From assembly GCA_965226795.1 (NCBI GenBank), contig CBDDDZ010000005.1:1312001-1376000 (forward strand): 64,000 nucleotides of DNA. The letters are read 5' to 3'. Each line of letters starts with the position of its first letter. Positions within the stretch are counted from its first letter, which is position 1. The translations under genes and the position numbers were made by a program. Positions 44,688 to 64,000 of the stretch are shown here, in pieces. Below the pieces are notes generated by a model. That model was not told the DNA's origin and made no database searches. It was given only the letters and a program-made list of their open reading frames with translations. The DNA comes from Candidatus Latescibacterota bacterium (GTDB lineage Bacteria; Latescibacterota; UBA2968; GCA-2709665).

Positions 44688-45758
44688 ATGATCGAGACCC
44701 GAGCCGTCCGCGAAGACGAAATTGAGGAGACGCTGGCGCTCCAGCGGCTGGTATTCCGGCCGGACGAGGGCGTGGGGGCGCTCGAACGTTACCGGACGTA
44801 CGTGCGGGACGATCCGAGCTACCGGCTGGATCAGTCTCGGGTTCTCCTGGAAGACGGGCGAATCGTGGCGCATTTGCGGGTATGGGATCGGGCAATTCGC
44901 GTGCGCGGGGCTGTGATTCGTGCCGGCGGTATCGGCAGCGTGCTGACCCACCCGGAATACCGGGGCAGGGGATTTTCGGGTGCGCTGATGCGGAATACTG
45001 AAGCGTATATGCTGAACGCCGGATACGACGTCGGACTCCTCTTCACGATTATCGGGACACCGTTCTACGAAGCGTTGGGTTGGACGCCGATACCGCTGCC
45101 GACGTTTGCCATCGACCTGGAATCTGAGCCCACTGACCGCCTCCCAACTCATGTCAGGGCTCTGGATGTTGTACGCGACCTGGATGCCGTGATGGCGATT
45201 TACGAGCAATGTTCAAGTCGCTTGACCGGTCCTGAAATGAGACCAGGGGATTACTGGTCGGCCGGCCCGTCGCGAATACGGGGTGTTTTCCCTAAGTGGG
45301 GCGTTGAGCAGGATGCGGATCTGTGCGGTTATGTGACCTTCGACGCAACCGGGGATCGGATCTGGGTGAAAGAAGGTTGCGTTGCGCCGTCGCATGAAGA
45401 AGTATTCGACGACCTGGCACGATTGATCTGCCGGTGCGCCAGCCGGAACGGATTGACGCGGGTGGAGGGCAGTCTTCCTGTGGGCCACGGGTTGGTGCGC
45501 GCGCTCGAAAAGGTCTGCGGTTCCATTGCAACATGGAACAGCCACGATGAAATGATGTTGAAGGGGATCAACTGGCGCACAATCAAGGAAAAGCTGAAAG
45601 GAGACCCGCCGCCCGGGGCAGCGCCGGCGGCCGAGGGAGCGTTCTGGCGCGCGTTATTCGGGCAGGACGGGGTCGGTTTGGATGAATCGATGTCGGGATG
45701 GATGGAATCTTTGCCGAAGTGCGAAGGACCGTTCTACTGGTGGAGCGATATCTTTTAG
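44688..45758 (+). CDS. GNAT-family N-acetyltransferase (Eis-like, double GNAT)
   Basis: GGIGSVLTHPEYRGRG and FYEALGW motifs. Confidence 0.82.
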   Translation: MIETRAVREDEIEETLALQRLVFRPDEGVGALERYRTYVRDDPSYRLDQSRVLLEDGRIVAHLRVWDRAIRVRGAVIRAGGIGSVLTHPEYRGRGFSGALMRNTEAYMLNAGYDVGLLFTIIGTPFYEALGWTPIPLPTFAIDLESEPTDRLPTHVRALDVVRDLDAVMAIYEQCSSRLTGPEMRPGDYWSAGPSRIRGVFPKWGVEQDADLCGYVTFDATGDRIWVKEGCVAPSHEEVFDDLARLICRCASRNGLTRVEGSLPVGHGLVRALEKVCGSIATWNSHDEMMLKGINWRTIKEKLKGDPPPGAAPAAEGAFWRALFGQDGVGLDESMSGWMESLPKCEGPFYWWSDIF

Positions 45759-45761
45759 TGT

Positions 45762-47609
45762 TCAGTCGAGGAGCCGCGCTTCGGCCTCGTCCACCATACC
45801 CTTCAGAATCCGTGCTGCAAGCCGGTCGATTTCGGTTTTCGTCTCCTCCAGGTTGGATCCGCACAGGTGGGGATGGTCCACCGATGCGGCGGAGACGTAG
45901 TATTTGATTTTGGGTTCGGTTCCCGACGGTCGGGCGGTGACGCGAGTATGGCCGGCAGGGGTGAAGGTAAAGGCGATGACGTCGCCCTTCGCGGCATCGA
46001 TCGTTCGGGTGGCGCCCGTCCGGACGTTCAGTGCCTTCCCCGCCCTCCTGTCGATGATTTCCACGACGTCGCAGCCGCCGACCTGTCGGGGTGGATGAGT
46101 CCGCAGGGATTCCATAATGTGGACGATATCGCGGCTGCCCTGCGCCCCGGTTCTGGAAACGGACTCCTGGATCTCCCGGAAGTAACCATATTCAGCATAA
46201 ATGGCGTCCAGGTATTCTCGCAGCGTGCGACCGCGGGCTTTGAGTCCTGCGGCACATTCGCATAGGAGGACGGCGGCGACGGCAGCGTCCTTGTCTCGGG
46301 TGAACGACCCTGCCAGATAGCCATGGCTTTCTTCGGTTCCGAACAGGAATTCGGCGTCCGACGGAAGATCGGCGATGATCCTGCCGATGTATTTGAAGCC
46401 GACCAGCAGGTCTTCTATGACCCTGGCGTCGAAGGCGCGTGCGATGATGGAGACCAGGTCGGTTGTGACGATTGTTTTTGCCACAATACCACCCCCAGGC
46501 AGTTCCCGGCGGTTTTTTTTTGTCTGTAAGAGGTAATGGCACAGAACAACGCCAATCTGATTGCCGTTGAGTGCAAGATCCTCAAGGGGGGCGTTCCATC
46601 CGGTTCGGGAAACAGGAACGGCGCAACCGAGCCGGTCGGCGTCCGGGTCGCTCGCGATGACCAGATCGGCGTCGATCTCGGCGGCTTTTTGAATGGCCAG
46701 AGCGAGTGCGCGGGGATCTTCGGGGTTGGCGATGCCTTCGGGAACCGTGGGGAAGTTGCCGTCCGGTTGCGCCTGCGATGGGACAACGTGCAGGTCCCTG
46801 TAGCCAAGGATTTCCAGTACCGGCAATATCGACGTGGTACCCACGCCGTGCAGCGGCGTGTAGACGACTCGGACGTCGCGTTCGGGGCTGAGCGAGAGGT
46901 TGGCCAGCTCGCGTTGATAGCACGTGTCGACGGTGCGATCCAGTATTCCGATTAGCCCCTCTTCAACCGCCCGGTTGAAGTCGATCTTCCTGATTTCGAG
47001 AACCGAGTTGACTTCCGCTATGATGTTTCCGTCGTGAGGCGGTACGACCTGGCCGCCGTCGGACCAGTACACCTTTATGCCGTTGTCGCCAGGCGGGTTG
47101 TGGCTGGCGCTGATCACCACGCCGGCTACCGCATTGGTCAGCCGGACAGCAAAGGAAAGTTCGGGGGAGGACCGACAGTCTCCAAAGATACTGGCGTGGA
47201 TGCCGTTGCCTGCAAGAATAGCCGCAACCTCGTTGGCGAAGGCTTTCGAGTTGTTTCGGGTGTCGTACGCGATTACGGCGTCGCGTCGCGTAGCGTCGGA
47301 GCCGGATTTGAGGACGTATTGCGCAATACCCTGCGCGGCTTCGCCGACGGTTCGCAGGTTGATGCGGTTTGGTCCCGGTCCCATGGCGCCTCGAATACCG
47401 CCGGTGCCGAATTCGATCCGGACGCGAAAGGCGTCTTCGAGTTCGTGCAGGTCTTGAGCCTGCACCAGGTTTCTGATTTCCTCCGCCGAAGCAGCATAGC
47501 CGGGGTCGGTCAGCCAGAGTACGGCGTTCTTTTCGGCGGCTTCGGAAAGTTCGCCCTCAGCGACCCAGAACTCGATTTTATTTAATGTGTCCGACGGCGT
47601 TTTTTGCAC
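45762..47609 (-). CDS. Phospho-sugar mutase (phosphoglucomutase/phosphomannomutase)
   Basis: FGTGGIRG, SASHNP, DPDADR, GFKYI, EESHG and RPSGTEPK motifs. Confidence 0.93.
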   Translation of the reverse strand: MQKTPSDTLNKIEFWVAEGELSEAAEKNAVLWLTDPGYAASAEEIRNLVQAQDLHELEDAFRVRIEFGTGGIRGAMGPGPNRINLRTVGEAAQGIAQYVLKSGSDATRRDAVIAYDTRNNSKAFANEVAAILAGNGIHASIFGDCRSSPELSFAVRLTNAVAGVVISASHNPPGDNGIKVYWSDGGQVVPPHDGNIIAEVNSVLEIRKIDFNRAVEEGLIGILDRTVDTCYQRELANLSLSPERDVRVVYTPLHGVGTTSILPVLEILGYRDLHVVPSQAQPDGNFPTVPEGIANPEDPRALALAIQKAAEIDADLVIASDPDADRLGCAVPVSRTGWNAPLEDLALNGNQIGVVLCHYLLQTKKNRRELPGGGIVAKTIVTTDLVSIIARAFDARVIEDLLVGFKYIGRIIADLPSDAEFLFGTEESHGYLAGSFTRDKDAAVAAVLLCECAAGLKARGRTLREYLDAIYAEYGYFREIQESVSRTGAQGSRDIVHIMESLRTHPPRQVGGCDVVEIIDRRAGKALNVRTGATRTIDAAKGDVIAFTFTPAGHTRVTARPSGTEPKIKYYVSAASVDHPHLCGSNLEETKTEIDRLAARILKGMVDEAEARLLD

Positions 47610-47798
47610 AGGAGTGCTCCTGTTGAATACACGCCAATTCCGTTGTGGGCAGAAAGTCGTATGCCTCGTGGGCGCCTGCCGGAATCGCGCCTTTTAATAT
47701 ATCTCATGAGACCCCGCGATCAACAGATAAATCGCTTGACTTTCGTAAGGCATTGTGCATATTGTCCGTAAGTGAAACAGTTATAAGGAGTTGGTCAC

Positions 47799-48497
47799 AT
47801 GACTATACTCTTTTTCCTCCTGTTTGCGGTCTTGCTGATTGTTCTGCCACCGGTCCGTCTGTCGGCGCATGGCCATTGCGGCGAAGGGCGGGAACCGGCG
47901 CTGGAAATACGTTTAAGGCCGTGGATCGGGCTGGCGGGTATCCGGCTTTTCCACGCTGACGGCGGTTGGCGTGTAGGCGTTCTTTTGGGGTGGTGGACAG
48001 TGTGGGCAACGGCGTTGACGAGGGGCGAGGATCGGAAGGAACAACGGGGCGCCAGGAAAAGTGTCAAGAAGAAAACGGATTTACCGGACGGGTTCCGGAC
48101 AGCGGTCGAACGGTTGGAGCGCGCCGGGCTCTATTTCAAGAGACTGTGGTTGCCTCTGCGACGGTCTGCGTCGCAATTTTATAACGGGTTCCGTCTACGC
48201 CGCATTTCATGCAAGGTCGCTTTCGGCGCATCCGATCCGGCCACGACCGGGCAGATCTTCGGATACTTCGTGGCGGCCTCGTCATTAATAGGGACAGGAG
48301 GACGCGTTGAGGCGACGCCCGATTTCAAGCGGCAGCGCCTGGATGGCGAAGCCAAGGTGGAAATCTGGATTTATCCACACCGGCTATTGTGCGCGTCTGT
48401 GTACATTGCGTGGCGCGTTGGGCTTGCATGGTTTTCCGAGCGACGCAACCGGAAACGCCTGCGGGAGGGCGTCTTTCGGGCTGGCACAACGAGTTGA
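47799..48497 (+). CDS. DUF2953 (YtfI-like) membrane-anchored protein
   Basis: N-terminal TM segment and FGASDPATTGQIFG...TPDF motif. Adjacent to ytfJ. Confidence 0.72.
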   Translation: MTILFFLLFAVLLIVLPPVRLSAHGHCGEGREPALEIRLRPWIGLAGIRLFHADGGWRVGVLLGWWTVWATALTRGEDRKEQRGARKSVKKKTDLPDGFRTAVERLERAGLYFKRLWLPLRRSASQFYNGFRLRRISCKVAFGASDPATTGQIFGYFVAASSLIGTGGRVEATPDFKRQRLDGEAKVEIWIYPHRLLCASVYIAWRVGLAWFSERRNRKRLREGVFRAGTTS

Positions 48498-48517
48498 GCG
48501 GGGTTTGAGGAGGCGTT

Positions 48518-48919
48518 ATGTCTGTTGAAGATCTCATCAAGACGGTGATGACGGAATTCCGTCAAATGGTAAAGACGGAGACCGTTGTGGGCGAACCGAT
48601 CGAGATAGGTGGGACGGTTGTCGTGCCGGTGTCCAGGATTTCCTTCGGGTTCGGCGCGGGCGGGGGCGCGGACAAGACGGATGGTGGCGGGAGCGGTACC
48701 GGGGGAGGAGCTTCTGTGGAACCGTTGGCATTTGTTGTGATTCGAGACGGGAAAACACAGATTCTCCCCGTACAGGAGAAAGAAGGATCCATTAAAGGGT
48801 TGTTGGATCTGGCACCGGACCTTCTGGCGAAGGTGAAAGCGTTCAAGGAGAAGAGAGACAGGAAGAGGGCCGAGGCGGAAGCCGAGCCAGGTTCCGGTGA
48901 TGACGACGTGAGCGCATAG
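48518..48919 (+). CDS. ytfJ: YtfJ/GerW-family protein
   Basis: TETVVGEPI...VPVSRISFGFGAGGG...GGGASVEPLAFVVI. Confidence 0.88.
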   Translation: MSVEDLIKTVMTEFRQMVKTETVVGEPIEIGGTVVVPVSRISFGFGAGGGADKTDGGGSGTGGGASVEPLAFVVIRDGKTQILPVQEKEGSIKGLLDLAPDLLAKVKAFKEKRDRKRAEAEAEPGSGDDDVSA

Positions 48920-48931
48920 GCCGGGGCGGCC

Positions 48932-50161
48932 ATGAACCGGCTTCTGCTTCTAATTCCGACAACGACCTATCGCACTCACGACTTTATGGCAGCGGCGTCG
49001 ACGCTCGACGTATCCGTGGTCGTGGGATCCGACCGCCGCCAGGCGCTGGCGAGTCAGACACCGGGAAGTACACTGGCGCTGGATTTCACGGAGCCCGCAG
49101 CCTCGGTCGAGAAGATTGTCGGTTTTTCAAAGGCGTACCCCATCCAGTCGGTCGTGGGAGTGGACGATGAGACCGTCGTGCTCGCCGCGATGGCCTGCAT
49201 GGCACTCGGACTTCCGCACAATTCGGTGACGTCGGCCCGGGCGTCCCGGTACAAACACGTGATGCGTCAGATGCTTGCTGAAAAAGGCCTGCCCTCGCCG
49301 GGGTTCAGGCTTTTTTCAATTTCGGACGAACCGGAAACCGCCGCCGCGATGGTCGACTATCCGTGCGTACTGAAGCCCGTGTTTCTGTCCGCCAGCCGCG
49401 GTGTGATCCGGGCAAATGAAGAAGCGGATTTCGTGACCGCGTTCGACCGGATTCTGCGGTTGATTTCGGAATCTGCACGTGGCGCGCCCGAAGGTGGAGA
49501 TTGTATTCTGGTGGAGGACTACATTCCTGGCCGGGAGGTGGCGCTGGAGGGATTGCTGGTTGAGGGTGAGTTGCAGACGCTCGCCCTTTTCGACAAACCG
49601 GATCCGCTCCATGGCCCTTATTTTGCCGAGACGCTGTACATAACGCCCTCCCGGCTGTCGGAATGCCTGCAGGCGCAAGTCCGTGAGACTGCGCAGAAGG
49701 CCGCGCGCGCGCTGGGGTTAAGCGTGGGGCCCGTACATGCCGAGCTCCGGCTGAACACGCGTGGCATCTACGTGGTGGAAATCGCCGCGCGGTCCATCGG
49801 CGGGCTGTGTTCGCGGGTATTGCGCTTTGGCGCCGGCATGTCGCTGGAGGAACTGATTCTGCGCCAGGCAACCGGTTACGCTCCCGGAAATTTTCGGAGG
49901 GAAAACACCGCGACTGGCGTAATGATGCTGCCGGTGTCGAAGCCGGGAATACTGCAATGCGTGCGGGGGATGGCACGCGCACGTCGCGTGCCTGGAATTA
50001 TTGACGTCGCGATAACCCTACCTACGGGTCAGCCCGTACAACCGCTGCCTGAGGGAGACCGGTATCTGGGGTTCATTTTCGCCCGCAATAAGACATCCGA
50101 GGCGGTGGAAGCTGCGCTTCGCGAGGCAAACCGACAACTCGGAGTTGTGATTGAGGGATGA
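48932..50161 (+). CDS. ATP-grasp domain protein (L-amino-acid ligase-like)
   Basis: YPCVLKP...SASRGV, LVEDYIPGREVALEG, GPVHAELR and EIAARSIGG motifs. Confidence 0.87.
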   Translation: MNRLLLLIPTTTYRTHDFMAAASTLDVSVVVGSDRRQALASQTPGSTLALDFTEPAASVEKIVGFSKAYPIQSVVGVDDETVVLAAMACMALGLPHNSVTSARASRYKHVMRQMLAEKGLPSPGFRLFSISDEPETAAAMVDYPCVLKPVFLSASRGVIRANEEADFVTAFDRILRLISESARGAPEGGDCILVEDYIPGREVALEGLLVEGELQTLALFDKPDPLHGPYFAETLYITPSRLSECLQAQVRETAQKAARALGLSVGPVHAELRLNTRGIYVVEIAARSIGGLCSRVLRFGAGMSLEELILRQATGYAPGNFRRENTATGVMMLPVSKPGILQCVRGMARARRVPGIIDVAITLPTGQPVQPLPEGDRYLGFIFARNKTSEAVEAALREANRQLGVVIEG

Positions 50162-50232
50162 GAAAGGGGCAATCAGTCCGGGGGGACCCTGGACGGTGTG
50201 TCCGGATCATTTTTTCTTCGAGGTTCTTTCGA

Positions 50233-51660
50233 TTAGACAAGAGCGAACTGCTCTTCGGTTGGTTCCGCTCAGCAATACCACGGCTCGGTGAGGCGGGGAA
50301 GGGATTGGCGGTTCGAGTCAATTCCTGAATCGAACTCTGGGGCCGGGCGGCCCAACAGGTGGTGGACGTACGACTGGATTCTATGGAAAATTTCTCGTCG
50401 GCTGGTGTCTTGATTCTGAAGCCGGGTGACCAACCGGGTGAGTTCGTGTTGGAGCCGATCCAACCGGACATCCGGATGTGCCCACGGATATGACAGGGTT
50501 TCGGGTGCGAAGGTTTCCACCAGGTCCCGAATCTCGGCAAGGCCCAGGAGTCTTGAGCCTTTGGGGATGAGCAGCCGTATCGTGAGCTGTACGGGAGAGA
50601 CGTTCTCGATCAGGTCAAGGCCCGCGAGGGTGTCCAGAAAGCCGGCATAGTGCTCCATGGTGACCCAGGGCGTGAACGGGATGAACGTCGGATTCATGAC
50701 GAGTTCGTGTCGTCGGAAGAGATGCACGACTTCGATGAAGTCGTCGACTGTATGGCCCTTGTCCAACCGCGCGAGGACCCGGTCGTCGAGGGACTCCACG
50801 GCGGTCGTGACAATCGCGCACCCGGTATCTTTGAGGAGGGGCAGATAACGGCTATACCCTAGCAGATGTTCGATTTTGACGGTGATATCGTAGGTGACAT
50901 CGGGAAATTTTTCGTGGAGCCTTGTCAAAACTGGTATGGCGTGGCCGATACCGTTGAAGAAGTCGGGATCACCAAACGTGATGTGGCCGGCCCCCGCGGC
51001 GACCTGTTTCGCAATGTCGTCCAGCACGGTCTCCGGTTGCACAATACGGAATCTGCCCCTGTACACGGGCACCACGGGACAATGGCGGCAGAGATGTTTG
51101 CAACCTCGGCTGGCCTCCGTATAGCCGACGGTTGTGAGATGGCCGTCCTCTGTGGATAGTTGCGCGTATCGGGAGAGGTCCGGCAGGCCTGTCCGGTCGG
51201 GCGGAAGAAACCGCTGCCTGGCCAGGGAAACGACGGGCTCTTCCTGGTCTGGGGTGGCGCTCGAGGCCCCTCGCAGGCGCCTGCAGAGTTGAAGCAGTCC
51301 GTTTTCGAATTCTCCGCCGAGAATGGTCTGGGCGCCCACGCTTCGCAGGAAGGATTCGTTCACGGATGCATAGAGCCCATAGAAACAGAGGTGGGCGTTG
51401 GCATTCTGTTCGCGGGTTCTTAAGGCAAGCGGTACGGCAAGTCGCGTTGCCGTGTGCATTGGCACGTAGAATGCCACCAGATCGGCGTCCCGAACGGCCT
51501 CTTCAGGAAAATCGTCTATTGAAACGTCAGCCAGGACAACGTCGAAGCCCGCCCTCCGCAACCATCCGGCCGGCGAGGCCAAACCGAATGGCTGACGACC
51601 CAATTCGTAGGTGGATACGAGCACGACTTTGAATGGACGCAATGGGGAGATGGTAGGCAT
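50233..51660 (-). CDS. CUAEP-tail radical SAM selenoprotein (B12-binding-like N-domain + radical SAM; in-frame TGA at 50271-50269 read as Sec)
   Basis: CKHLCRHC (CxxxCxxC). The tail reads TGG TAT TGC TGA GCG GAA CCA ACC GAA GAG CAG TTC GCT CTT GTC TAA = W-Y-C-U-A-E-P-T-E-E-Q-F-A-L-V-stop, giving 475 aa. Confidence 0.85.
50239..50255 (-). promoter_or_regulatory. Putative bacterial SECIS hairpin
   Basis: On the minus strand, 13 nt after the TGA: stem AAGAGC, loop AGTTC (G at position 2), stem GCTCTT. The loop lies 19 nt from the UGA. Confidence 0.65.
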
Positions 51661-51675
51661 CCCTTGTTCATCCTG

Positions 51676-51722
51676 AAAAAAACGGCAGACACGGGGACGA
51701 CCCCCACGAAGTCTGCCGTTTT
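51676..51722 (-). terminator. Intrinsic terminator after nfuA
   Basis: Minus strand reads AAAACGGCAGAC...GTCTGCCG followed by TTTTTTT. Confidence 0.72.
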
Positions 51723-51735
51723 ATGTATGCTGTTG

Positions 51736-52320
51736 TTATTTTGAGGATTGGTAGTACGGGTTCGTGCCACCCGCGTGTTCGGTCACGTCGAGGATCTCTT
51801 CAATTTCGGGCACGGCCTCCTTGATGAGGACTTCGACACCCTGTTTGAGCGTGACATCCACCATGCCGCAACCCTGGCATCCTCCACCGAACTGGATGTA
51901 CGCTCTATTGTCCTTTACGTCGATCAACGAAATATGACCACCGTGCGAGGCAACGCTGGGGTTGATCTTCTCGTCGATAATGTTCTGGATCTTCTCTGCA
52001 GTGGTGCCTTTCAGATGCGAGGGAACCTTGTTGGGATTCTCTATCTTGAAACCTCGGCCCATCAGGCTGTCCACATAGTCCAGAATAATGTCCTCGGCAT
52101 ACGGGGCGCTTTCCTGGTCGACGTAGATATTGAACCCGTCGAACGGCGTGACGACGTCGTCTTCTTCTTCCTGCCCGTCGGCGATAAAGGCGAGTCGGTA
52201 GCTGGCCTGCAGAGGCGATACCGCCTCTGCTTTGACACGAACGCCAACGATGGCCGATTCCTGGTTCCTGATAAGGTTGACGACCTCCTTCTTCGCGGCT
52301 TCGGTTACGGTGATGTTCAT
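51736..52320 (-). CDS. nfuA: NfuA-type Fe-S cluster carrier
   Basis: Cys-free A-type N-domain (ITVTEAA...GFKIENPN) plus NifU-C domain INPSVASHGG...GGGCQGC. Confidence 0.88.
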   Translation of the reverse strand: MNITVTEAAKKEVVNLIRNQESAIVGVRVKAEAVSPLQASYRLAFIADGQEEEDDVVTPFDGFNIYVDQESAPYAEDIILDYVDSLMGRGFKIENPNKVPSHLKGTTAEKIQNIIDEKINPSVASHGGHISLIDVKDNRAYIQFGGGCQGCGMVDVTLKQGVEVLIKEAVPEIEEILDVTEHAGGTNPYYQSSK

Positions 52321-52360
52321 ATCGACCTTCCCCTTAGAGAGGTGTACTTTGCCAGGGCGG

Positions 52361-52855
52361 TCAGGACTCAAGCGCCACTGTCGGTCTTGCAGGATGTTCG
52401 CGGTCTATTTTCTCCTGGATTTTCATCAGCGCGAACAACAGGTCTTCAGGCCGGGGCGGGCAGCCGGGCACGTAGATATCCACCGGCAAGAACTGATCGA
52501 CGCCCTGAACCAGCGTATACGTATTGAAAACGCCTCCGGACGATGCGCAGGCACCCATCGAAATCACCCACTTCGGATCCGGCATCTGATCGTAGATCTT
52601 CTTGAGAACCGGCATCATCTTGATCGAAATTCGACCTGATACAATGAGCAAGTCGGACTGCCGTGGCGAGAACCGCACAGCTTCCGCGCCGAAGCGAGCC
52701 ATGTCGAAGCGTCCGGAAAGCGTGGCCATCATTTCGATGGCGCAGCAAGCCGTGCCGAATGGCATTGGCCAGAGGGATGACTTGCGCGCCCAGTTAATCA
52801 TTTTGGACAGAGTGGTTGTGAAAACGTTATCGCCAAGGCCCGTCTCAAGTCCCAT
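52361..52855 (-). CDS. nuoB: Second, stand-alone NuoB-family Fe-S protein within the SUF operon
   Basis: [30 protein letters not shown] and [10 protein letters not shown] motifs. Confidence 0.9.
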
Positions 52856-52961
52856 TGATCACCTCTGACAGAAGGGTTGGAAACGTCACGTGAGTTGTCC
52901 GTCGCCGGCGGAGAGTCCCCGACGAACCTTCGGGTTGGCACAACCCGCCCGCGGCGTTTTG

Positions 52962-53441
52962 CTAACCCGAAACCTGAATCAGCTCGTCCGTCACGTTCTG
53001 CAAACAGGCATCCATGGACTGTTCTTCTCCCAGCAGATCATTCAGTGTAACACGGCTCAGAATCTGGTCAATCATGGACTGTACCGAGGTCCACAGCGAA
53101 CGTATCGAACAGTCTACCGAGTGCGTACATAGTGCTTCCTGGCCGGCGTGTTCCTCGCAGAATTCTGGAGTGAACAGACGACCGCCGAGCGCGGACAGTA
53201 CGTCGCCAACCACAATCAGGTCAGCGGATTGCGCGAGTCTGTACCCTCCGGCCTGACCTCGAAGGCTTTCCACGTATCCCCCCAGCCGCAGAAGACGCAT
53301 CAGCTTGGCGACATTGGGGGCTGAGAGGCCTTCAATCTGGCTGATCTCAGATATGGAGAGGCTCCCGCCGGTTTCTTTCTGCCTCCGGCCTATCTGAAGC
53401 AGGCACCGCAGCCCGTATTCTTCCCCGGCGCTCAATTTCAT
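52962..53441 (-). CDS. Rrf2-family (IscR-like) transcriptional regulator
   Basis: EEYGLRCL, VESLRGQAGGYRLA and three Cys in FCEEHAGQEALCTHSVDC. Confidence 0.88.
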   Translation of the reverse strand: MKLSAGEEYGLRCLLQIGRRQKETGGSLSISEISQIEGLSAPNVAKLMRLLRLGGYVESLRGQAGGYRLAQSADLIVVGDVLSALGGRLFTPEFCEEHAGQEALCTHSVDCSIRSLWTSVQSMIDQILSRVTLNDLLGEEQSMDACLQNVTDELIQVSG

Positions 53442-53575
53442 GGCTCTATAGCTTTCATGGATGGGTTGGAAGACCGATTTAATCCATAGGGCTCCACGGA
53501 TCCGGAAAGAACGCGTCGTCGGCCCCCGCGACCGCGACGTGTAGGGGGGGGGTGTGGCGCGGCTTCGGGAGCCGC

Positions 53576-54085
53576 CTAAAGCAGTCCGAGCTCCAGTCTT
53601 GCGGCTTCGGACATCATCTCCGGGTTCCACGGCGGATCGAAGGTCAGATCCAGGCTGACGTCTCGTACACCGGAAACCGATCGGGTGGCGCTTTCAACTT
53701 GCCCGGGCAAGATACCCGCGGCCGGACAGGCGGGGGAGGTCAGGGTCATCTGGAGGTAGGTCATCCCGGTGGGTTCGACCTTGATTTCGTAAATGAGGCC
53801 GATGTCGTAAATGTTGACCGGAATTTCCGGGTCGAAGACCGTGCGATGGGCCGCGATAATGTTCTCCCTGACGACTTCGGTGTCTATCGGATCGTCGGAC
53901 TCGGCCGCGGTCTCGCCCGCTTCGGCCATCTCTTGCTTTTCTTCCTGGCGTCTGGCGGTGTGCGCTTCCAGCGCGCTGGTGTCGACGGGATTCACCTCGT
54001 CTGCCGCGTTGGTATTCGACTCGTCGTTTGGTGGCGAATCGCCTTCTTCGTTCCTGTACAGTCGGTTCAGCAGTCGTTGGAGCAC
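53576..54085 (-). CDS. sufT: DUF59/SufT-like Fe-S assembly protein with acidic N-terminal extension
   Basis: VFDPEIPVNIYDIGLIY, MTLTSPACP and FDPPWNPEMMSEAARLELG. GTG start follows GGGAG. Confidence 0.85.
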   Translation of the reverse strand: MLQRLLNRLYRNEEGDSPPNDESNTNAADEVNPVDTSALEAHTARRQEEKQEMAEAGETAAESDDPIDTEVVRENIIAAHRTVFDPEIPVNIYDIGLIYEIKVEPTGMTYLQMTLTSPACPAAGILPGQVESATRSVSGVRDVSLDLTFDPPWNPEMMSEAARLELGLL

Positions 54086-54108
54086 GATGGATTTCTCCCG
54101 ATGGAAGC

Positions 54109-54564
54109 CTACTCGGTGGTTACCGGCAATTCGCGGATTTCGAGTGCAGCCACGAGGGTGTGCCATGCCAGGGTTGCGCATTTGATGCGCACCGGAAACT
54201 CTCTCACGCCTGCAAAAACTGCCAGTTTGCCGATACCGTCGGTGACGGGTTCGTTCGAAACGTCGCTGGTGACCAGGTCGCGGAACTTTCCGAAGAGCGA
54301 TTGGGCTTCCTGAAGGGTCCGTCCCTTGACCGCGTCGGTCATCAGAGACGCCGACGCTTTGAAGATGGCACATCCGGCACCCTGAAACGCGATATCTTCA
54401 ATGTGGTCGCCGTCGAGTTTGACGAAGAGGTTCAAATGATCGCCACACAACGGGTTGTACCCTGCGGACGTTCGATCCGCGCCGGTCATGGACCGGTAGT
54501 TGCGCGGACTCCGGTTGTGGTCCAGAATGACTTGTTGGTAGAGTTCACGGAGATCGGACATCAT
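54109..54564 (-). CDS. sufU: SUF system NifU-family protein SufU
   Basis: LYQQVILDH, NPLCGD, GCAIFKASAS and RIKCATLAW motifs. Confidence 0.92.
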   Translation of the reverse strand: MMSDLRELYQQVILDHNRSPRNYRSMTGADRTSAGYNPLCGDHLNLFVKLDGDHIEDIAFQGAGCAIFKASASLMTDAVKGRTLQEAQSLFGKFRDLVTSDVSNEPVTDGIGKLAVFAGVREFPVRIKCATLAWHTLVAALEIRELPVTTE

Positions 54565-55841
54565 CGGAAGACCTCATTGGTCGTGTGCAACGCCCGTACA
54601 AGCGTGTCGATGTCTTCCCGCGTATTGTAAAACGCAGTCGCCGCCCGGGTCGTCGCCGAAATGTTGAAGTGCCGCATGACAGGTTGGGCGCAATGGTGTC
54701 CAGCACGTACTGCCACGCCTTGCTGATCGACGATGGTGCCGACGTCATGGGGGTGTACACCGTCCATAACGAAGGAGACGACGCTGATTTTCTCTTCAGC
54801 TGTTCCAATGATTCTCAACCCTGGTATCTCGGAAAGGGCGTCCGTCGCATAGGCCAGCAGGTCGTTCTCGTAAGCCGCGGCCGCTTCCAGGTCGATCCGG
54901 TTCAAATAGTCGATGGCAGCGCCCAGGCCGATACAACCGGCAATATGGGGTGTGCCGGCCTCGAAGCGGGCGGGTGGATCGGCATAGGTAGTTTTTTCGA
55001 GCGAAACTTCACGAATCATGCCGCCCCCGCCCTTGTAGGGCGGCATCGATTCAAGCAGTTCACTTCTCCCGTAAAGAACCCCGATGCCGGTCGGACCGTA
55101 TAGCTTGTGCCCCGAAAAGGCGTAGAAGTCGCATCCGAGCGCCTGTACGTCCACTTTGAAATGGGGGACCGCCTGTGCCCCATCCAGGAGAACGGGGATA
55201 CCGCGATCATGTGCCAGTTCCACGATTTCGGCGACCGGATTGAGGGTGCCAAGGACGTTCGACACGTGTACGACAGCCACAAGTTTCGTACGCTCATTCA
55301 GCCGTCTTTCAACCTCGTCGATCTGGAAATCGCCCCGGTCACAAATGGGTATAACCCGCAATCGTGCACCTTTTTCCTCGCAGAGCATCTGCCACGGAAC
55401 GATGTTTGAGTGGTGTTCCATGGTGGAAACGAGGATTTCGTCGCCGGCTTCCACGCATTTGCGTCCAAATGTCTGGGCGACCAGATTGATGCTGTCCGTC
55501 GTGCCGCTGGTGAAGATGATTTCCCGGTCGTGGGCCGCGTTCAGAAACTGGCGGACCTTGCTGCGTGCCCCTTCGTAGGAATCCGTTGCAAGCTGGCTGA
55601 GAAGATGAACCCCGCGATGTACGTTGGCATTGGCCGTTTCGTAAAAGACTTCAAGGACGTCCAGTACGTCCCTGGGCTTCTGGGTTGTCGCGGCGTTGTC
55701 GAGGTAGACCAGCGGATGGCCCCGAATGGATTGGCCTAGAACCGGAAAATCCCGACGGATACGGTAAGGATCGAAAGGCCCCGCGCGTTCGATGAGCGGG
55801 CAGGCAAGCCGTTCGGCCAGGGTATGTGCTGTTAGGCTCAT
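54561..55841 (-). CDS. sufS: SufS cysteine desulfurase
   Basis: YLDNAATTQKP, SGHKLYGPTG and RAGHHCAQP motifs. ATGA overlap with sufD. Confidence 0.95.
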   Translation of the reverse strand: MSLTAHTLAERLACPLIERAGPFDPYRIRRDFPVLGQSIRGHPLVYLDNAATTQKPRDVLDVLEVFYETANANVHRGVHLLSQLATDSYEGARSKVRQFLNAAHDREIIFTSGTTDSINLVAQTFGRKCVEAGDEILVSTMEHHSNIVPWQMLCEEKGARLRVIPICDRGDFQIDEVERRLNERTKLVAVVHVSNVLGTLNPVAEIVELAHDRGIPVLLDGAQAVPHFKVDVQALGCDFYAFSGHKLYGPTGIGVLYGRSELLESMPPYKGGGGMIREVSLEKTTYADPPARFEAGTPHIAGCIGLGAAIDYLNRIDLEAAAAYENDLLAYATDALSEIPGLRIIGTAEEKISVVSFVMDGVHPHDVGTIVDQQGVAVRAGHHCAQPVMRHFNISATTRAATAFYNTREDIDTLVRALHTTNEVFR

Positions 55842-57163
55842 GGCATGTTTCCGGCGTTTTGCGCCTGTTCGAATCTGTCCATTACAATACGTTCGAGATA
55901 GTCCCGAACGGAATCGGGTTTGATTCTGTTCAGGATGTCGACCGCGAATGCATGTACAAGGATGCGCTGTGCGGTTGCGTGACTCAACCCGCGAGAGCGC
56001 AGGTAAAAGACCGCGTTCTGATCGAGTTGCCCAATTGTTGCGCCGTGGGAGCACTTGACCTGATCGGCGTAGATTTCGAGTTGGGGTTTGGTATTGATAC
56101 CGGCGCCGTCCGAAATGAGCAGGCTCTGGTTGCTCTGATAGGCGTCGGTCTCCTGGGCTTTCCGGTGGACGTGAATCTTGCCGCGAAAGACGCCGCTGGA
56201 CCTGCCCCCGAGAATTCCCTTGTAGAGTTCGTGGCTGCTGCAATTCGGCTCGGCGTGTTCGATCAGGGTATGGTTGTCGATATGCTGCTCGTTGTCGGTC
56301 AGATAGAAGCCGTTGACCGTGGCTTCACCGGCTTCACCGGCCAGCAACACGTTGACTTCGTTGCGCACCAGTTTGCCGCCCAGAGAAATGGCGTGCGTGG
56401 ACAGATTGCTCCCGGCACCCAAACGGCTTTGCATCGTGGCGATATGAAACGCCTCGGGGCTCTCCAGTTCCAGCTTGTAGTGATCCACCACCGTACGGTC
56501 GTCGGCGATGACTTCGGTCACCGCGTTTGAGAAATAGGCGCCGCCGCCGGTATAGGTTTCGACTACCGTGGCCTGGCTGTCTTCTTCAGCCAGGACAAGC
56601 GTGCGGGGGTGTGAAATGGAAGGACCGCCTGAAGGGATTGAAATAAACAAGATGTGAATGGGAGATTCGACAGCCGTGCCCCGTGGGATATATACACAGG
56701 CACCATCCTGCAGAAATGCGGTGTTGAGCGCGACGAAGGCGTGCTCTTCGTACGCCGCGTGTCGCGCGATATGGGTTTCCACCCATTCGGGTTCGGAGGC
56801 CATCAATTCGGACAGACTGCACACCCGCACGCCGTGTGGGAGGTTCCCCGTGCGGGAATATTCGGCACTGTAGAAGCCGTTGACGAAAACCAGGCGCGTG
56901 GCTGCCAGTTCCTGGATGGCATCTTCCGTTTTCCAGACCCGACGTACATCTGCCGCCGTTGTTGTGCGAAACGATGTACGGACAAGCGGTGCAACATTTG
57001 TGTGAAACCACGCTTCGTCCCTCGTCCCCGGAAACCCGAGTTCCGCGAATCGTCCGATTGCAGACTTGCGGAGTGCGTGCAACGGCGTGGCGGACCGTCC
57101 GTTCAGGCTCTCTTCAAAGATGGCAAATGCGGAAAGATAGGCGTGTGTGCCTTTGTTCACCAT
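55838..57163 (-). CDS. sufD: Fe-S cluster assembly protein SufD
   Basis: FVALNTAF, KPQLEIYADQVKCSHGATIG and FYLRSRG motifs. Confidence 0.93.
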   Translation of the reverse strand: MVNKGTHAYLSAFAIFEESLNGRSATPLHALRKSAIGRFAELGFPGTRDEAWFHTNVAPLVRTSFRTTTAADVRRVWKTEDAIQELAATRLVFVNGFYSAEYSRTGNLPHGVRVCSLSELMASEPEWVETHIARHAAYEEHAFVALNTAFLQDGACVYIPRGTAVESPIHILFISIPSGGPSISHPRTLVLAEEDSQATVVETYTGGGAYFSNAVTEVIADDRTVVDHYKLELESPEAFHIATMQSRLGAGSNLSTHAISLGGKLVRNEVNVLLAGEAGEATVNGFYLTDNEQHIDNHTLIEHAEPNCSSHELYKGILGGRSSGVFRGKIHVHRKAQETDAYQSNQSLLISDGAGINTKPQLEIYADQVKCSHGATIGQLDQNAVFYLRSRGLSHATAQRILVHAFAVDILNRIKPDSVRDYLERIVMDRFEQAQNAGNMP

Positions 57164-57179
57164 GGTGCGACAACCTCCT

Positions 57180-57953
57180 TTAAGCACGGGCGAATCTGGC
57201 TGTAGACTCTTCGCGAATCCAATCGTAGCCTTCCGCTTCCAGCTTCTGGGCGAGTTCAATTCCACCGGATTTGACAATCCGGCCCTTGAGAAGAACATGC
57301 ACGGCGTCCGGCACGATGTAGTCTAGCAGCCGCTGGTAGTGGGTGACCACAAGAACCGCGCTCCCGGGGTTTTTCTGGTGAAGCGTGTTCACACCGTTGG
57401 CCACGATCTTCAGGGCGTCGATATCCAAGCCGGAGTCCGTTTCGTCCATAATGGCCAGCCTGGGTTCGAGCATTGCCATCTGGAATATTTCATTTCGTTT
57501 TTTTTCGCCGCCGGAAAAGCCTTCGTTGACCGCCCGATTGAGAAAAGTCGGGTCCATTTCCACTAGTTTGAGCTTTTCCTTGGAAAGAGCGAGAAAGTCC
57601 ATCGCATCGAGTGTACCCTGTCCGCGTACTTTTCGAAGTTCATTGAGCGCAGTCCGGAGAAAATAGGCGCTATTGACGCCGGGAATTTCCACCGGGTACT
57701 GAAAAGCCATGAAAACGCCGGCCTGGGCGCGTTCTTCCGGGTTCAACTCCAACAGGTCTTCGCCTTCGTAGAGAATCTCGCCCCGCGTCACTTCGTATTC
57801 TTCCCGACCGGCCAATACCTGGGCAAGGGTGCTTTTTCCGGATCCATTGGGACCCATAATAGCGTGGATTTCGCCAGCGTTGATTTTCAGGTCGATGCCG
57901 GAAAGGATGCCGGTTCCGTCGACGCTTGCGTGGAGGTCGTTGATTTCGAGCAT
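57180..57953 (-). CDS. sufC: Fe-S cluster assembly ATPase SufC
   Basis: [29 protein letters not shown] and THYQRLL motifs. Confidence 0.96.
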
Positions 57954-58091
57954 GTGTGTTCCTTTTTGTAAACTGCCCTTGTTGCAGCCGTGAGGCGCTG
58001 CCTGACGGGGCGTTTTCTTAGGCCTTCAGCGACGCCTTCGATGGGTTTGCAGATCCTCTCTACGTCGCCTGGGCGCGTTTCCCCTTGCGCT

Positions 58092-59558
58092 TTATCCCAC
58101 GCTGCCTTCCAGGCTGATGCCAAGCAACTTCTGCGCTTCGACGGCGAATTCCATAGGGAGTTCGGCCAGCACTTCCCTGCAGAAGCCGTTGACGATCATG
58201 GAGACGGCGTCTTCGGTGGAGATGCCGCGCTGGTTGCAGTAGAAAATTTGATCTTCACCGATTTTTGACGTGGAGGCTTCGTGCTCTACCTGAGAAGATG
58301 TGTTTCTCACGTCGATGTACGGGAAGGTGTGAGCCCCGCAACGGTCGCCGATGAGCATGGAGTCGCATTGGGTGAAGTTTCGGGCGTTCGTTGCGCCTTT
58401 TAGAACCTGAACCCGGCCCCGATAGGTATTCTGACCGTTCTTGGCGGAGATGCCTTTCGAAATGATGGTGCTGCGCGTGTTCTTACCCAGATGTATCATT
58501 TTCGTGCCTGTATCGGCCTGTTGGCGCCCGCTGGTTACGGCCACGGAGTAGAATTCGCCGATGGAGTTGTCGCCTTGGAGAATGCAACTGGGATACTTCC
58601 AGGTGATGGCAGATCCGGTTTCAACCTGGGTCCAGGAGATTTTGGCGTTGGCGCCTCGGCAGGCCCCGCGTTTGGTGACAAAGTTGTAGATCCCGCCAAC
58701 ACCGTTTTCGTCTCCCGGATACCAGTTTTGAACGGTCGAGTATTTGATCTGCGCATTGTCGAGGGCAACCAGTTCCACGACGGCGGCATGGAGCTGATTC
58801 TCGTCCCTCTTGGGGGCCGTGCAACCTTCGAGATACGATACGTACGCCCCGTCTTCGGCGACGATCAGCGTCCTCTCGAACTGGCCTGTATTGGCTGCGT
58901 TGATGCGGAAGTACGTGGACAGTTCCATGGGGCACCGCACACCCCGGGGGATGTAGCAGAAGGAGCCGTCCGTAAAGACCGCGGAGTTGAGAGCGGCGAA
59001 GAAATTGTCATTGTAGGGCACGACCGAACCGAGGTATTTCTTCACCAGGTCGGGGTGTTCCTGTACGGCTTCCGAGAACGAGCAGAAAATGATGCCCAGG
59101 TCAGCCAGCTTGTCCTTAAACGTCGTTGCCACGGAAACGCTGTCGAAAACGGCGTCGACCGCCACGCCGGCAAGTATCTTCTGCTCTAAGAGAGGGATGC
59201 CCAATTTCTCATACGTACTCAGGATTTCAGGGTCAACCTCGTCGAGGCTCTGGAGCGAGTCCTGTTTTTTGGGTGCGGAGTAATAGATGATTTTCTGATA
59301 GTCAATGTCCGGATAGTCGACCATGGCCCACTGGCGGCTTCGTTTGCGGCGGGTCGGATCGTCCATTTTGAGCCAGTTGCGATAGGCCTTGAGGCGCCAC
59401 TGCAACAGCCAGTCGGGTTCGCTTTTCTTCTCGGAAATAAACGCGATAATATCTTCATTCAGACCAGGGGGCGCTTCGTCCGTCTCGATATCGGTTATGA
59501 ACCCGTATTTATACTCTCCGGTTGCCAGTTCTTCAATTTCCTGCAATTGTTCGCTCAT
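58092..59558 (-). CDS. sufB: Fe-S cluster assembly protein SufB
   Basis: [28 protein letters not shown] and [10 protein letters not shown] motifs. Confidence 0.96.
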
Positions 59559-59643
59559 CGGGCGCTCCATATATCGCATGAAAGGGCATTGGTTTTGTTG
59601 TTGTCTGTGCGACGCGACGATAACGTTTCCTGAATTCAAGCTT

Positions 59644-59672
59644 AACATACCCAATCCGTAACCACGTGTCAA
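59644..59672 (-). promoter_or_regulatory. Putative sigma70 promoter of the suf operon
   Basis: TTGACA-17 nt-TATGTT on the minus strand, about 85 nt upstream of sufB. Confidence 0.6.
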
Positions 59673-59767
59673 GATTAAAAATGTACTAAAAAGTCAAGTT
59701 TGGCGGATCCGGTATCACGAGGGTTCGGCTCTGCCGGGGGAATGAATGCACGAGAGGTGCTTTTCTC

Positions 59768-59797
59768 TTGACAGATGCGCCAGGATTTCGCTAAATT
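59768..59797 (+). promoter_or_regulatory. Putative sigma70 promoter of the nuo operon
   Basis: TTGACA-18 nt-TAAATT, about 100 nt upstream of nuoA. Confidence 0.5.
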
Positions 59798-59896
59798 ATC
59801 GCCGTCCGTTCGGAAAGCAGATAACGACGGATTGAAGGACTGCCCAACATGTGAGTGCCTTTTCATAAGCGTTGCTCATCGGGAGGTTCCGATACG

Positions 59897-60316
59897 ATGC
59901 TGGATCAATATGCCAATGTTCTGATATTCCTGGGGATCGGCGCTCTCTTCGTGGTGGTCAATCTGTTCGTTGGCAGTCTGATTCGGCCCCGGAATCCCAG
60001 CGCCGAGAAACTGAGTACATACGAGTGCGGTGAAGAACCCGTGGGCGGATCCTGGATTCAATTCAACATTCGGTTCTATGTGATAGCCCTGGATTTCATC
60101 ATCTTCGACGTGGAAGTAGTATTACTGTATCCGTGGGCGGTGGTCGCCAACGACTTCGGCTGGTATGGCTTCGGCGTCATGTCGATTTTCGTCATGGTGC
60201 TTCTGCTTGGCTTGGCGTATGCCTGGCGGAAGGGCGCCCTCGAATGGGTGCGTCCCAAGCTCTCGGAGCGGCAGGTGCCCGTGCCCGCTCCCGCCACCAG
60301 GACACGTGTTGCCTGA
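59897..60316 (+). CDS. nuoA: NADH-quinone oxidoreductase subunit A
   Basis: KLSTYECGEEP, FIIFDVE and WRKGALEW motifs. GGAGG RBS. Confidence 0.93.
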   Translation: MLDQYANVLIFLGIGALFVVVNLFVGSLIRPRNPSAEKLSTYECGEEPVGGSWIQFNIRFYVIALDFIIFDVEVVLLYPWAVVANDFGWYGFGVMSIFVMVLLLGLAYAWRKGALEWVRPKLSERQVPVPAPATRTRVA

Positions 60317-60465
60317 TCCGCCCGCAGTATCCGGTCACGCGGCAGGCGCGTGGTGTGGTAATGAATCGCGCCCCGCTCGTTCTGCTTACATGGTTTCAAT
60401 TCGCAGCCCTTCACGGTGTACGAATTCAATAGTCCGGTCGGACGCTTAAGGAGGAATGCCCGTCC

Positions 60466-60951
60466 ATGGGAAAGCTCACGGGTCGTTTCCAGGATAACGT
60501 CATTGTGACGTCGGTCGATTATTTCGTCAATTGGGCGCGGCTGTCCTCACTCTGGCCGATGACGTTCGGATTGGCGTGTTGCGCCATAGAAATGATGGCC
60601 ACGGGGGCATCGCGGTACGATTGGTCGCGGTTGGGCATGGTCCCGCGCGCTACGCCCCGTCAGTCCGATCTGATGATTGTGGCTGGCACGGTTACCCTGA
60701 AAATGGCCACCCGCGTGAAGAAATTGTACGACCAGATGGCTGAGCCCAGGTACGTGATGTCCATGGGCTGCTGCGCCACGTCCGGCGGCCCGTACTGGCA
60801 GCACGGATACCATGTATTGAAGGGTGTCGACCGGGTTGTACCGGTTGATGTGTATGTCCCGGGCTGCCCTCCGAGACCGGAGGCCTTGCTGGAGGGCGTA
60901 CTGAAGCTGCAGGACAAGATCCGCATCGATTCCATCGCGAAAGTGAGTTGA
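60466..60951 (+). CDS. nuoB: NADH-quinone oxidoreductase subunit B
   Basis: [16 protein letters not shown] and VPGCPPRPE motifs. Confidence 0.95.
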
Positions 60952-60995
60952 GCAGCACCGACAGACTTGCGCCGGACCGGGTGTGGGGGTGATCA

Positions 60996-61466
60996 ATGAC
61001 GCCGCAGGAGATTTACGACCGGATGAAGGAGAAGTTCGCCGACCGTGTTCTGGATCTGACCGAAAATGTGGATCCGTTCATTCGTGTACGGTCCGACGCA
61101 ATTGCGGAAATCGGACTGTATCTGCGGGACGACGAAGCGATGCGGTTCGAGTCGCTGATGTGTCTGAGCGGAGTGGATTATCCGGAACACCTTACGCTGG
61201 TCTATCACCTGTTCTCAACGTCCCACCGTCACAAGATAACGCTTAAGGCGGAAGTGGGAAGAGACGATCCCCATGTGCCAACGGTGGAGGGTATATGGCG
61301 GGTGGCGAACTGGCACGAACGCGAGACGTACGATATGTTCGGAATTGTCTTCGACGGGCACAGCGATCTGCGGCGGATTCTGTGTCCCGACGACTGGGAA
61401 GGGTGGCCCCTTCGCAAGGATTACCAGGTTCAGGAATATTACCGCGGCATCAAGGTTGAGGTATAA
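60996..61466 (+). CDS. nuoC: NADH-quinone oxidoreductase subunit C
   Basis: SGVDY, ANWHERETYDMFG and DWEGWPLRKDY motifs. Confidence 0.94.
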   Translation: MTPQEIYDRMKEKFADRVLDLTENVDPFIRVRSDAIAEIGLYLRDDEAMRFESLMCLSGVDYPEHLTLVYHLFSTSHRHKITLKAEVGRDDPHVPTVEGIWRVANWHERETYDMFGIVFDGHSDLRRILCPDDWEGWPLRKDYQVQEYYRGIKVEV

Positions 61467-61469
61467 ATT

Positions 61470-62669: not shown

Positions 62670-62690
62670 GCTACGTCTGAGGAGTGCCCT

Positions 62691-63863: not shown

Positions 63864-63932
63864 TTAGTTGACGAATAGCGTATTCGGGCCATAGTTTAGG
63901 ATCAACTGGACGACTCCTCCAAAGGTGATGCA

Positions 63933-64000
63933 ATGGGATCGTATTTCAGGAATATCTTTCAGTCGGCTTCGTCCATCTGGGTGGGCCTGAATATCACATT
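63933..64000 (+). CDS. nuoI: Probable NuoI N-terminus (truncated by window edge)
   Basis: MGSYFRNIFQSASSIWVGLNIT is an amphipathic start typical of NuoI, in the expected position after nuoH. Confidence 0.55.
   Translation, partial: MGSYFRNIFQSASSIWVGLNIT

Follow-up and report, generated by a model that had tools for sequence, protein, structure and literature searches.

A CUAEP-tail radical SAM gene with a predicted selenocysteine codon, and its ligase and NfuA-like neighbours, in a Latescibacterota genome

The window analyzed in this study is a stretch of 64,000 nucleotides from the genome of a Candidatus Latescibacterota bacterium, and on its minus strand, at 50233..51660, lies a gene for a radical SAM protein with a CUAEP tail. 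Under translation table 11, the open reading frame starting at 51660 (-) encodes 463 amino acids, ends ...LTEPWYC and stops at a TGA at 50271-50269. When this TGA is read as selenocysteine, the product is instead 475 amino acids long and ends C463-U464-AEPTEEQFALV ahead of a TAA, and the frame WYC-TGA-AEPTEEQFALV-TAA put forward in the first-pass annotation was confirmed on the minus strand. The first half of this vicinal Cys-Sec pair, the Cys463 codon TGC (50272..50274, -), is invariant, and it is followed by the in-frame TGA of the predicted Sec464 (50269..50271, -) and by the tail AEPTEEQFALV with the true stop TAA (50233..50268, -), in which A465, E466, and P467 are invariant. The CxxxCxxC cluster motif (C187, C191, and C194; 51079..51102, -) is likewise invariant across 79 aligned sequences.

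The protein belongs to NF040546, the family of radical SAM proteins with CUAEP or CCAEP tails, which had been named correctly at first pass. It scores 609.2 bits when read through and 586.9 bits when truncated, against a cut-off of 500, with the profile match ending at position 457 in the truncated form and at position 467 of 468 in the read-through form. The second-best family is that of ArsL (NF040542), at 286.1 bits against a cut-off of 450, and the next family reaches about 47 bits. A Pfam scan recovered the radical SAM domain (PF04055) at 50.7 bits (cut-off 29.5). The genome, which is 95.9% complete, holds a single copy of the family. The predicted model of the protein has a mean pLDDT of 92.7, with values of 72 for residues 441-450, 83 for 451-460, and 63 for 461-470, and this pattern at the C-terminus fits a tethered arm that may be mobile. 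The best match to the fold of the model is AprD4 (TM 0.68, 17% identity), and the top structural matches, AprD4, TsrM, and OxsB, range from TM 0.56-0.70 at 14-18% identity. These three are radical SAM enzymes with a cobalamin domain and have a similar fold, whereas the N-terminal B12-binding-like match here (PF02310) is weak, at 23.4 bits and below its cut-off of 32.1. Searching solved structures with the single sequence gave no match, and a profile search returned only weak matches to AprD4 and MgmA.

Convergent with this gene is an ATP-grasp L-amino-acid ligase of 409 amino acids (48932..50161, +; PF13535, PF18603, PF18130) with an RxIGGLC293 motif, in which the domains ATPgrasp_N, ATP-grasp_4, and LAL_C2 score 44.3, 112.8, and 57.9 bits, all above cut-off. 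Upstream of the ligase, at 47799-48919 (+), one gene belongs to DUF2953 and another to the YtfJ/GerW family, and in the wider loci neither is kept alongside the module. With one found against 0.3 expected, the terminator-like hairpin at 50189-50205 (+) is too weak for use. Directly upstream of the radical SAM gene is an NfuA-like Fe-S carrier (51736..52320, -; PF01106 and PF01521), which scores 161.5 bits on TIGR03341, below the cut-off of 269. This carrier closes a suf run (52361-59672, -) of sufB, sufC, sufD, and a sufS-like gene, as identified by sequence, and of sufU, a gene for a SUF-associated protein, and one for an Rrf2 regulator, as identified by family scan; a lone nuoB-like gene then precedes nfuA. 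A second nuoB belongs to a separate nuo operon, which starts at 59855 (+).

The genome encodes the machinery for selenocysteine, with all four of the genes that the first-pass annotation had named for a search, selA, selB, selC, and selD, being present. The genome profile search placed selA (562.6 bits), selB (370 bits), and selD (361.7 bits) above cut-off, and selC is a tRNA with a TCA anticodon that matches the Rfam tRNA-Sec model at 73.6 bits, again above cut-off. The selA, selB, and tRNA-Sec genes are clustered on the window's own contig (C5:2494849-2498371). The selD gene (G000:C4:335792-336715) is a selenoprotein candidate itself, with CG-TGA-AAK followed by a hairpin similar to the one described below, 17 nt from the UGA and with the loop GGUC. 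Within the phylum, selA was found in 117 of 140 genomes, including all 31 that carry the radical SAM gene.

Wider comparison drew on the best 80 of 561 confirmed contig matches, a set in which one of the six seed patterns favours Cys forms and four of the 80 overlap the relatives or the phylum sample; three motif matches at other places in these loci proved spurious and were excluded. Among these best 80 of 561 homologues, the codon at the recoded position is TGA in 45 and TGC or TGT in 35, with nothing else observed, and the AEP that follows is invariant. Conservation past the TGA and the existence of orthologues with cysteine are both as the first-pass annotation had expected. The TGA and the AEP tail are present in all 22 genomes of the window's own family, and the gene was found in none of the 19 genomes of the sister family that were searched. 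Across the phylum it occurs in 31 of 140 genomes, each with a single TGA. In a quickly built tree of 81 members, the state changes between Cys-Sec and Cys-Cys 12 times, with three of these switches forced by strong branches. In the best 80 of 561, selA is above cut-off in 42 of the 45 TGA-form genomes and in 20 of the 35 Cys-form genomes (Fisher p 2.6e-4, with kin not being independent). The three TGA-form genomes from which a selA match is absent are drafts of 1.3, 1.9, and 5.7 Mb.

Behind the TGA lies a SECIS-like hairpin (50239..50255, -) with a 6-bp stem, a 5-nt loop, and a conserved loop G at 50248, assigned through folding, comparison, and consensus criteria. Its sequence is AAGAGC/AGUUC/GCUCUU, with 50255-50250 pairing with 50244-50239, a gap of 13 nt from TGA to stem and 19 nt from TGA to loop, and the G as the second of five loop nucleotides. 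Every detail of the geometry described at first pass holds; taken alone, the hairpin is weak evidence, as about 1% of other stops have one. This rate comes from the stops of frames of at least 300 codons in the same genome, where a perfect stem of at least 6 bp with a loop G at a like distance follows 20 of 1858 TGA, 10 of 893 TAG, and 5 of 795 TAA stops. Shuffling five segments gave z-scores of -0.5 to -1.4, so that the stability of the hairpin is not significant. In isolation it folds at -6.2 kcal/mol, and its pair probabilities are 0.8-0.9 with the RNA starting at the UGA and about 0.5 when upstream RNA is free to pair. An Rfam scan of 45000-64000 returned no match. Stability was therefore dropped as proof of recoding, being ordinary against shuffled sequences and common by chance, and the hairpin is convincing through comparison only.

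That comparison separates the two forms. Counted in the register of the window, 4.87 of the 6 pairs are retained in TGA forms and 2.94 of 6 in Cys forms, so the hairpin decays in the latter. Under a looser rule, which was set after inspection of the data and requires the conserved G at the first or second loop position whilst allowing one mismatch, at least five pairs are found in 44 of the 45 TGA forms and 9 of the 35 Cys forms (best 80 of 561). Covariation was assessed in 45 TGA sequences, made up of 43 of the 45 loci, the window, and Thermomicrobium roseum. Four of the six stem pairs have changed on both sides (30 cells), which was equalled in 0 of 500 shuffles and lies above all six slid registers; two stem pairs show breaks, in 14 and 19 rows, which fall mostly in a subgroup whose register is shifted by one. 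Codon choice follows the same division: the Gln at +7 is encoded by CAG in 45/45 TGA forms and in 25/31 Cys forms, and the Ala at +9 by GCT in 24/37 TGA forms and 1/14 Cys forms, a codon used for one of the 33 alanines in the gene body. In L153, L154, and T. roseum a Pro stands at +7, yet the loop G is retained, which argues that the constraint acts on the base.

Short contigs of other organisms match the window at the DNA level over almost this tail alone (50234-50298), which is in line with a double constraint from protein and RNA. The stretch is also contained in contigs from RNA libraries, of which one may come from the source sample itself and another has no cover over the tail; contigs of this kind cannot show transcription, strand, or level, and they carry no weight here.

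Taken together, the selenocysteine machinery, the alternation of TGA with Cys codons, and the covarying hairpin of the TGA forms make it very likely that this UGA is read as selenocysteine, the comparative signal being well outside what chance would give. The alternative, that translation truly ends at the TGA and that tail and hairpin are either remnants or coincidence, is highly improbable. It would account for a hairpin that is thermodynamically ordinary and of a kind found after about 1% of stops, and for the 3 of 45 TGA-form genomes (best 80 of 561) with no selA match, and the case for recoding is one made from sequence. A true stop would not, however, be expected to alternate with Cys codons alone in all of the best 80 of 561 homologues, to be followed by an invariant AEP, to switch state 12 times on the tree with three switches forced by strong branches, or to be accompanied by codon choice that tracks the hairpin in TGA forms.

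The effect on public annotation is considerable, and the expectation that gene callers truncate this protein was borne out: among the 120 best database homologues, 105 end in W[YF]C and the other 15 read CCAE. The window protein's own database entry is 463 amino acids long. The T. roseum protein WP_012643191.1 (RefSeq via PLSDB; L142:5947-7422) also stops at the TGA, past which its frame reads AEPLEDP with a hairpin in the same register. Several truncated entries bear the family name, and the family is therefore known while the residue is missing. The description of the gene as a hidden selenoprotein stands as far as truncation is concerned; "hidden" is an overstatement, since curators already list the family as a (seleno)protein and its cut-off is passed even by the truncated form (587 bits). 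Most database entries are without the likely catalytic residue, so cloning the annotated gene would yield a truncated enzyme.

Selenocysteine in this family is already catalogued in NCBIfam, and the window gene adds one member. Haft and Gwadz, in the accessible part of their text, name the CUAEP family as an uncharacterised CU-motif selenoprotein (10.1101/2022.07.06.499078), and it is not mentioned in the main text of a selenoproteome review from 2026. Literature searches for CUAEP/CCAEP and for ArsL with selenocysteine, with subscription journals and preprint supplements mostly outside their reach, returned no study of function, biochemistry, SECIS, or partner, and a search for DUF169 with arsenic returned no study of the function of the CUAEP family. 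Nor did these searches find in print the covarying SECIS, the profile of the ligase, or the link to NfuA. What makes the locus of interest is the module of radical SAM enzyme, ligase, and NfuA, unpublished as far as these searches show, and not the recoding.

The ligase and the radical SAM gene occur in an identical set of 31 of the 140 phylum genomes and are adjacent in 28 of the 31. As selA is present in 117 genomes, the ligase is not simply a trait of selenocysteine users; the co-occurrence in 31 of 140 represents a handful of independent events, with kin sharing genes. In the wider set (best 80 of 561), the ligase lies at 52 of 80 loci, be it downstream, upstream, or convergent. Among the remaining 28 genomes, an orthologue is present elsewhere in 19 (E 3.9e-90 or better), three have distant matches only, and six have no match. 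Nine of the best 80 of 561 genomes are thus without a ligase orthologue when searched with this query, and two of the nine are large genomes of actinomycete isolates; the pairing is therefore not obligate. A ligase locus in Pantoea has no radical SAM gene. Even so, the radical SAM enzyme and the ligase are most probably partners.

Cys293 of the ligase is present in 88 of 88 orthologue matches, and neither the 84 ligase matches nor the NfuA matches among the retrieved loci contained an in-frame stop. On one metagenome contig (WNGJ01045140.1; L156:1084-2235, -), a ligase orthologue that is 55% identical carries a TGA at the position of Cys293; this is a single contig with a weak hairpin, with an ABC substrate-binding gene nearby. 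A second metagenome match to the pattern of a TGA ligase proved spurious. In some organisms, the partner ligase may itself contain selenocysteine.

NfuA is found beside the radical SAM gene at 22/22 and 9/9 loci of the window's own phylum and at 12 of 81 wider loci, and it also adjoins four ligase genes that are separated from the radical SAM gene. Other recurrent neighbours at the 81 wider loci are YggX (36) and DUF169 (11), mostly in Acidobacteriota, and an 893-aa gene, presumably aconitase, at 29 loci, again mostly in Acidobacteriota. Two Acidobacteriota loci (L105:9603-13915 and L086:9527-12261) have a different arrangement, in which DUF169, a methyltransferase (above cut-off for CpaM in L105), and an HgcAB-like fusion come after the radical SAM gene. 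Searches of both genomes found no ligase orthologue, which suggests a second module. In a single case from Anaerolineales (L071:1298-1969), a MerB-family gene lies two ORFs upstream of a Cys-form gene.

The gene family probably helps to make a small molecule, and a pathway can be proposed by analogy with ArsL. SelB would insert selenocysteine at the hairpin. The enzyme, with its CxxxCxxC core, would cut SAM at the C-gamma-S bond as ArsL does, and its Cys-Sec tail would swing a bound thiophilic atom into the site, toward the aminocarboxypropyl (ACP) group of SAM. The ligase would then join the homocysteine- or methionine-shaped product to a second amino acid, giving a dipeptide, while NfuA would supply or repair the Fe-S cluster. 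That SAM cleavage resembles that of ArsL and that the tail carries the atom into the site is plausible by analogy, at a little under an even chance; that the ligase acts on the radical SAM product, in that order, could equally be so or not. The whole chain, from selenocysteine through ACP transfer to an atom on the Cys-Sec arm to dipeptide ligation, is put at slightly lower odds than the ArsL-like step alone. Sulfur or selenium is the more likely atom rather than arsenic, given that Fe-S genes rather than ars genes lie alongside, and this is the weakest step of the proposal. Within the chain, the tests made here cover the selenocysteine insertion step and the co-occurrence only. More tentatively still, the genes may represent a widespread two-enzyme pathway across Acidobacteriota, Latescibacterota/Gemmatimonadota, Methylomirabilota, Chloroflexota, and Pseudomonadota, in which an ArsL-type selenoenzyme would join ACP to sulfur, selenium, or a metalloid and a ligase, with a Cys or Sec site of its own, would build the dipeptide.

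The neighbouring genes could also be read differently. The Cys-Sec tail may be a redox or cluster-binding arm, one that reduces or ligates an Fe-S centre or delivers electrons, with the 5'-deoxyadenosyl radical acting on a peptide made by the ligase. Mammalian thioredoxin reductase has a C-terminal Cys-Sec redox arm and offers a precedent, and the top neighbours besides the ligase are genes of Fe-S or oxidative-stress function (NfuA at 12/81 and YggX at 36/81 loci), to which the suf run in the window can be added. The fold is also that of B12-domain radical SAM enzymes. However, AprD4, the best of these matches, is just 17% identical, whereas ArsL, at 286 bits against about 47 for the next family, is the sole close family, and it uses its tail cysteines to bind substrate. 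Removal of the ArsL tail, moreover, leaves iron and sulfur content unchanged, and the tail binds no cluster (10.1101/2024.02.01.577332). A redox or cluster-binding arm is, on balance, unlikely.

Closer to ArsL is the possibility that this is a two-ligand variant for an organoarsenical or metalloid such as methylarsenite, Sb, or Te, with the ligase giving an arsinothricin-like dipeptide prodrug. A vicinal dithiol suits mono-substituted As(III), and such chemistry would match the tail. The ArsL variant MCCA is, in the accessible portion of the report, the best catalyst with methylarsenate (PMC13598754), and Haft and Gwadz, in the part of their text available, tie CU/CC motifs to heavy-metal atoms (10.1101/2022.07.06.499078). 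At 2 of the best 80 of 561 loci, DUF169, a corrinoid-associated methyltransferase, and the HgcAB-like fusion lie downstream of the gene. Against this, 13 proteins from two ars islands, used as queries on 81 loci, gave ArsR-like matches in two and generic methyltransferase matches in two, and no ArsN1, ArsI, or aquaporin, whereas genes for RCCLKC-tail proteins, the tail type of ArsL, do sit in ars islands. The window's own genome (96% complete) likewise has no arsenite methyltransferase (ArsM) above cut-off and no Acr3 match. A metalloid substrate is therefore improbable, and transfer of ACP to sulfur or selenium remains the preferred reading.

Two ArsL-family clusters, on plasmids of Priestia (L143:2483-3706) and Alicyclobacillus (L144:2463-3695), do contain an ATP-grasp ligase, and they also hold a gene of the carboxymuconolactone-decarboxylase family. 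These clusters hint at an arsinothricin dipeptide. A literature search for arsinothricin with ATP-grasp found nothing pertinent, PMC13149037 being unrelated as far as its available text goes. Orthology between the window ligase and the ligases of these Bacillota clusters was considered and is not supported, as they are 24-25% identical and no closer than unrelated ligases. In 61 sampled Actinomycetota genomes there were nine matches to the ArsL family, all below cut-off.

If the proposed chain is correct, it would extend the rare ACP chemistry beyond arsenic and yield a new amino-acid-derived metabolite. The link to the ligase and NfuA offers a direct assay, covering which SAM bond is cut, which atom the tail binds, and what the ligase takes as substrate.

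Compared with known systems, the hairpin agrees with the bacterial SECIS consensus in most respects. The consensus, as given in the accessible text of PMC13188914, is a loop of 3-9 nt, a stem of 4-16 bp, a G in the first two loop positions, a distance of 16-37 nt from the UGA, and an energy of at most -7.5 kcal/mol. Four of these five numbers agree (loop 5 nt, stem 6 bp, G second, 19 nt), whereas the hairpin alone falls short of the energy guideline at -6.2 kcal/mol, compared with -10.1 for the segment from UGA to stop, which includes a second small hairpin; the lower stem is also absent here. Loss of the loop G in Cys forms is a pattern also described for hydrogenases in the available part of PMC13582414, and because hydrogenases behave likewise, the behaviour of the SECIS here can be regarded as ordinary.

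The ligase falls in the same three-domain ATP-grasp class as BL00235, BacD, and RizA. Its best solved relative is BL00235 (PDB 3VOT; E 3e-34), a distant homologue that makes Met-Gly and Met-Met according to the accessible text of PMC6920838, and a likeness at this level says little about the substrate of the window ligase. In the alignment, 3VOT and BacD are without the GGLC cysteine, which is invariant in the window ligase family.

Within NF040546 the window protein is a full-length member with a C-U-A-E-P tail and shows no difference in kind, and its nearest family is that of ArsL (RCCLKC tail, arsinothricin biosynthesis), with which it shares the N-terminal domain and the radical SAM core whilst falling below the ArsL cut-off (286.1 vs 450 bits). 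It is 33-34% identical to two RCCLKC-tail proteins through residue 407, although 33% identity is no proof of shared chemistry. ArsL itself cuts SAM to MTA and an ACP radical, and its RCCLKC tail is dispensable for this cleavage and needed for formation of the C-As bond (10.1101/2024.02.01.577332). In the accessible part of a later preprint, all three tail cysteines bind arsenic, as As(III), and the electrophile is proposed to be an Fe-ACP species (10.64898/2026.04.29.721666). The terminal CC of the RCCLKC proteins aligns with C463-U464, this terminal match following a long gap, and the window protein has about 50 extra residues before its tail. Where the ArsL tail has three cysteines, the window protein has two ligands, with selenocysteine for the second Cys and no third Cys, and where the two RCCLKC genes lie on plasmids inside ars islands, the window gene has no ars context. 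Among large families, the CUAEP family stands closest to ArsL, which is among the very few radical SAM enzymes that make an ACP radical.
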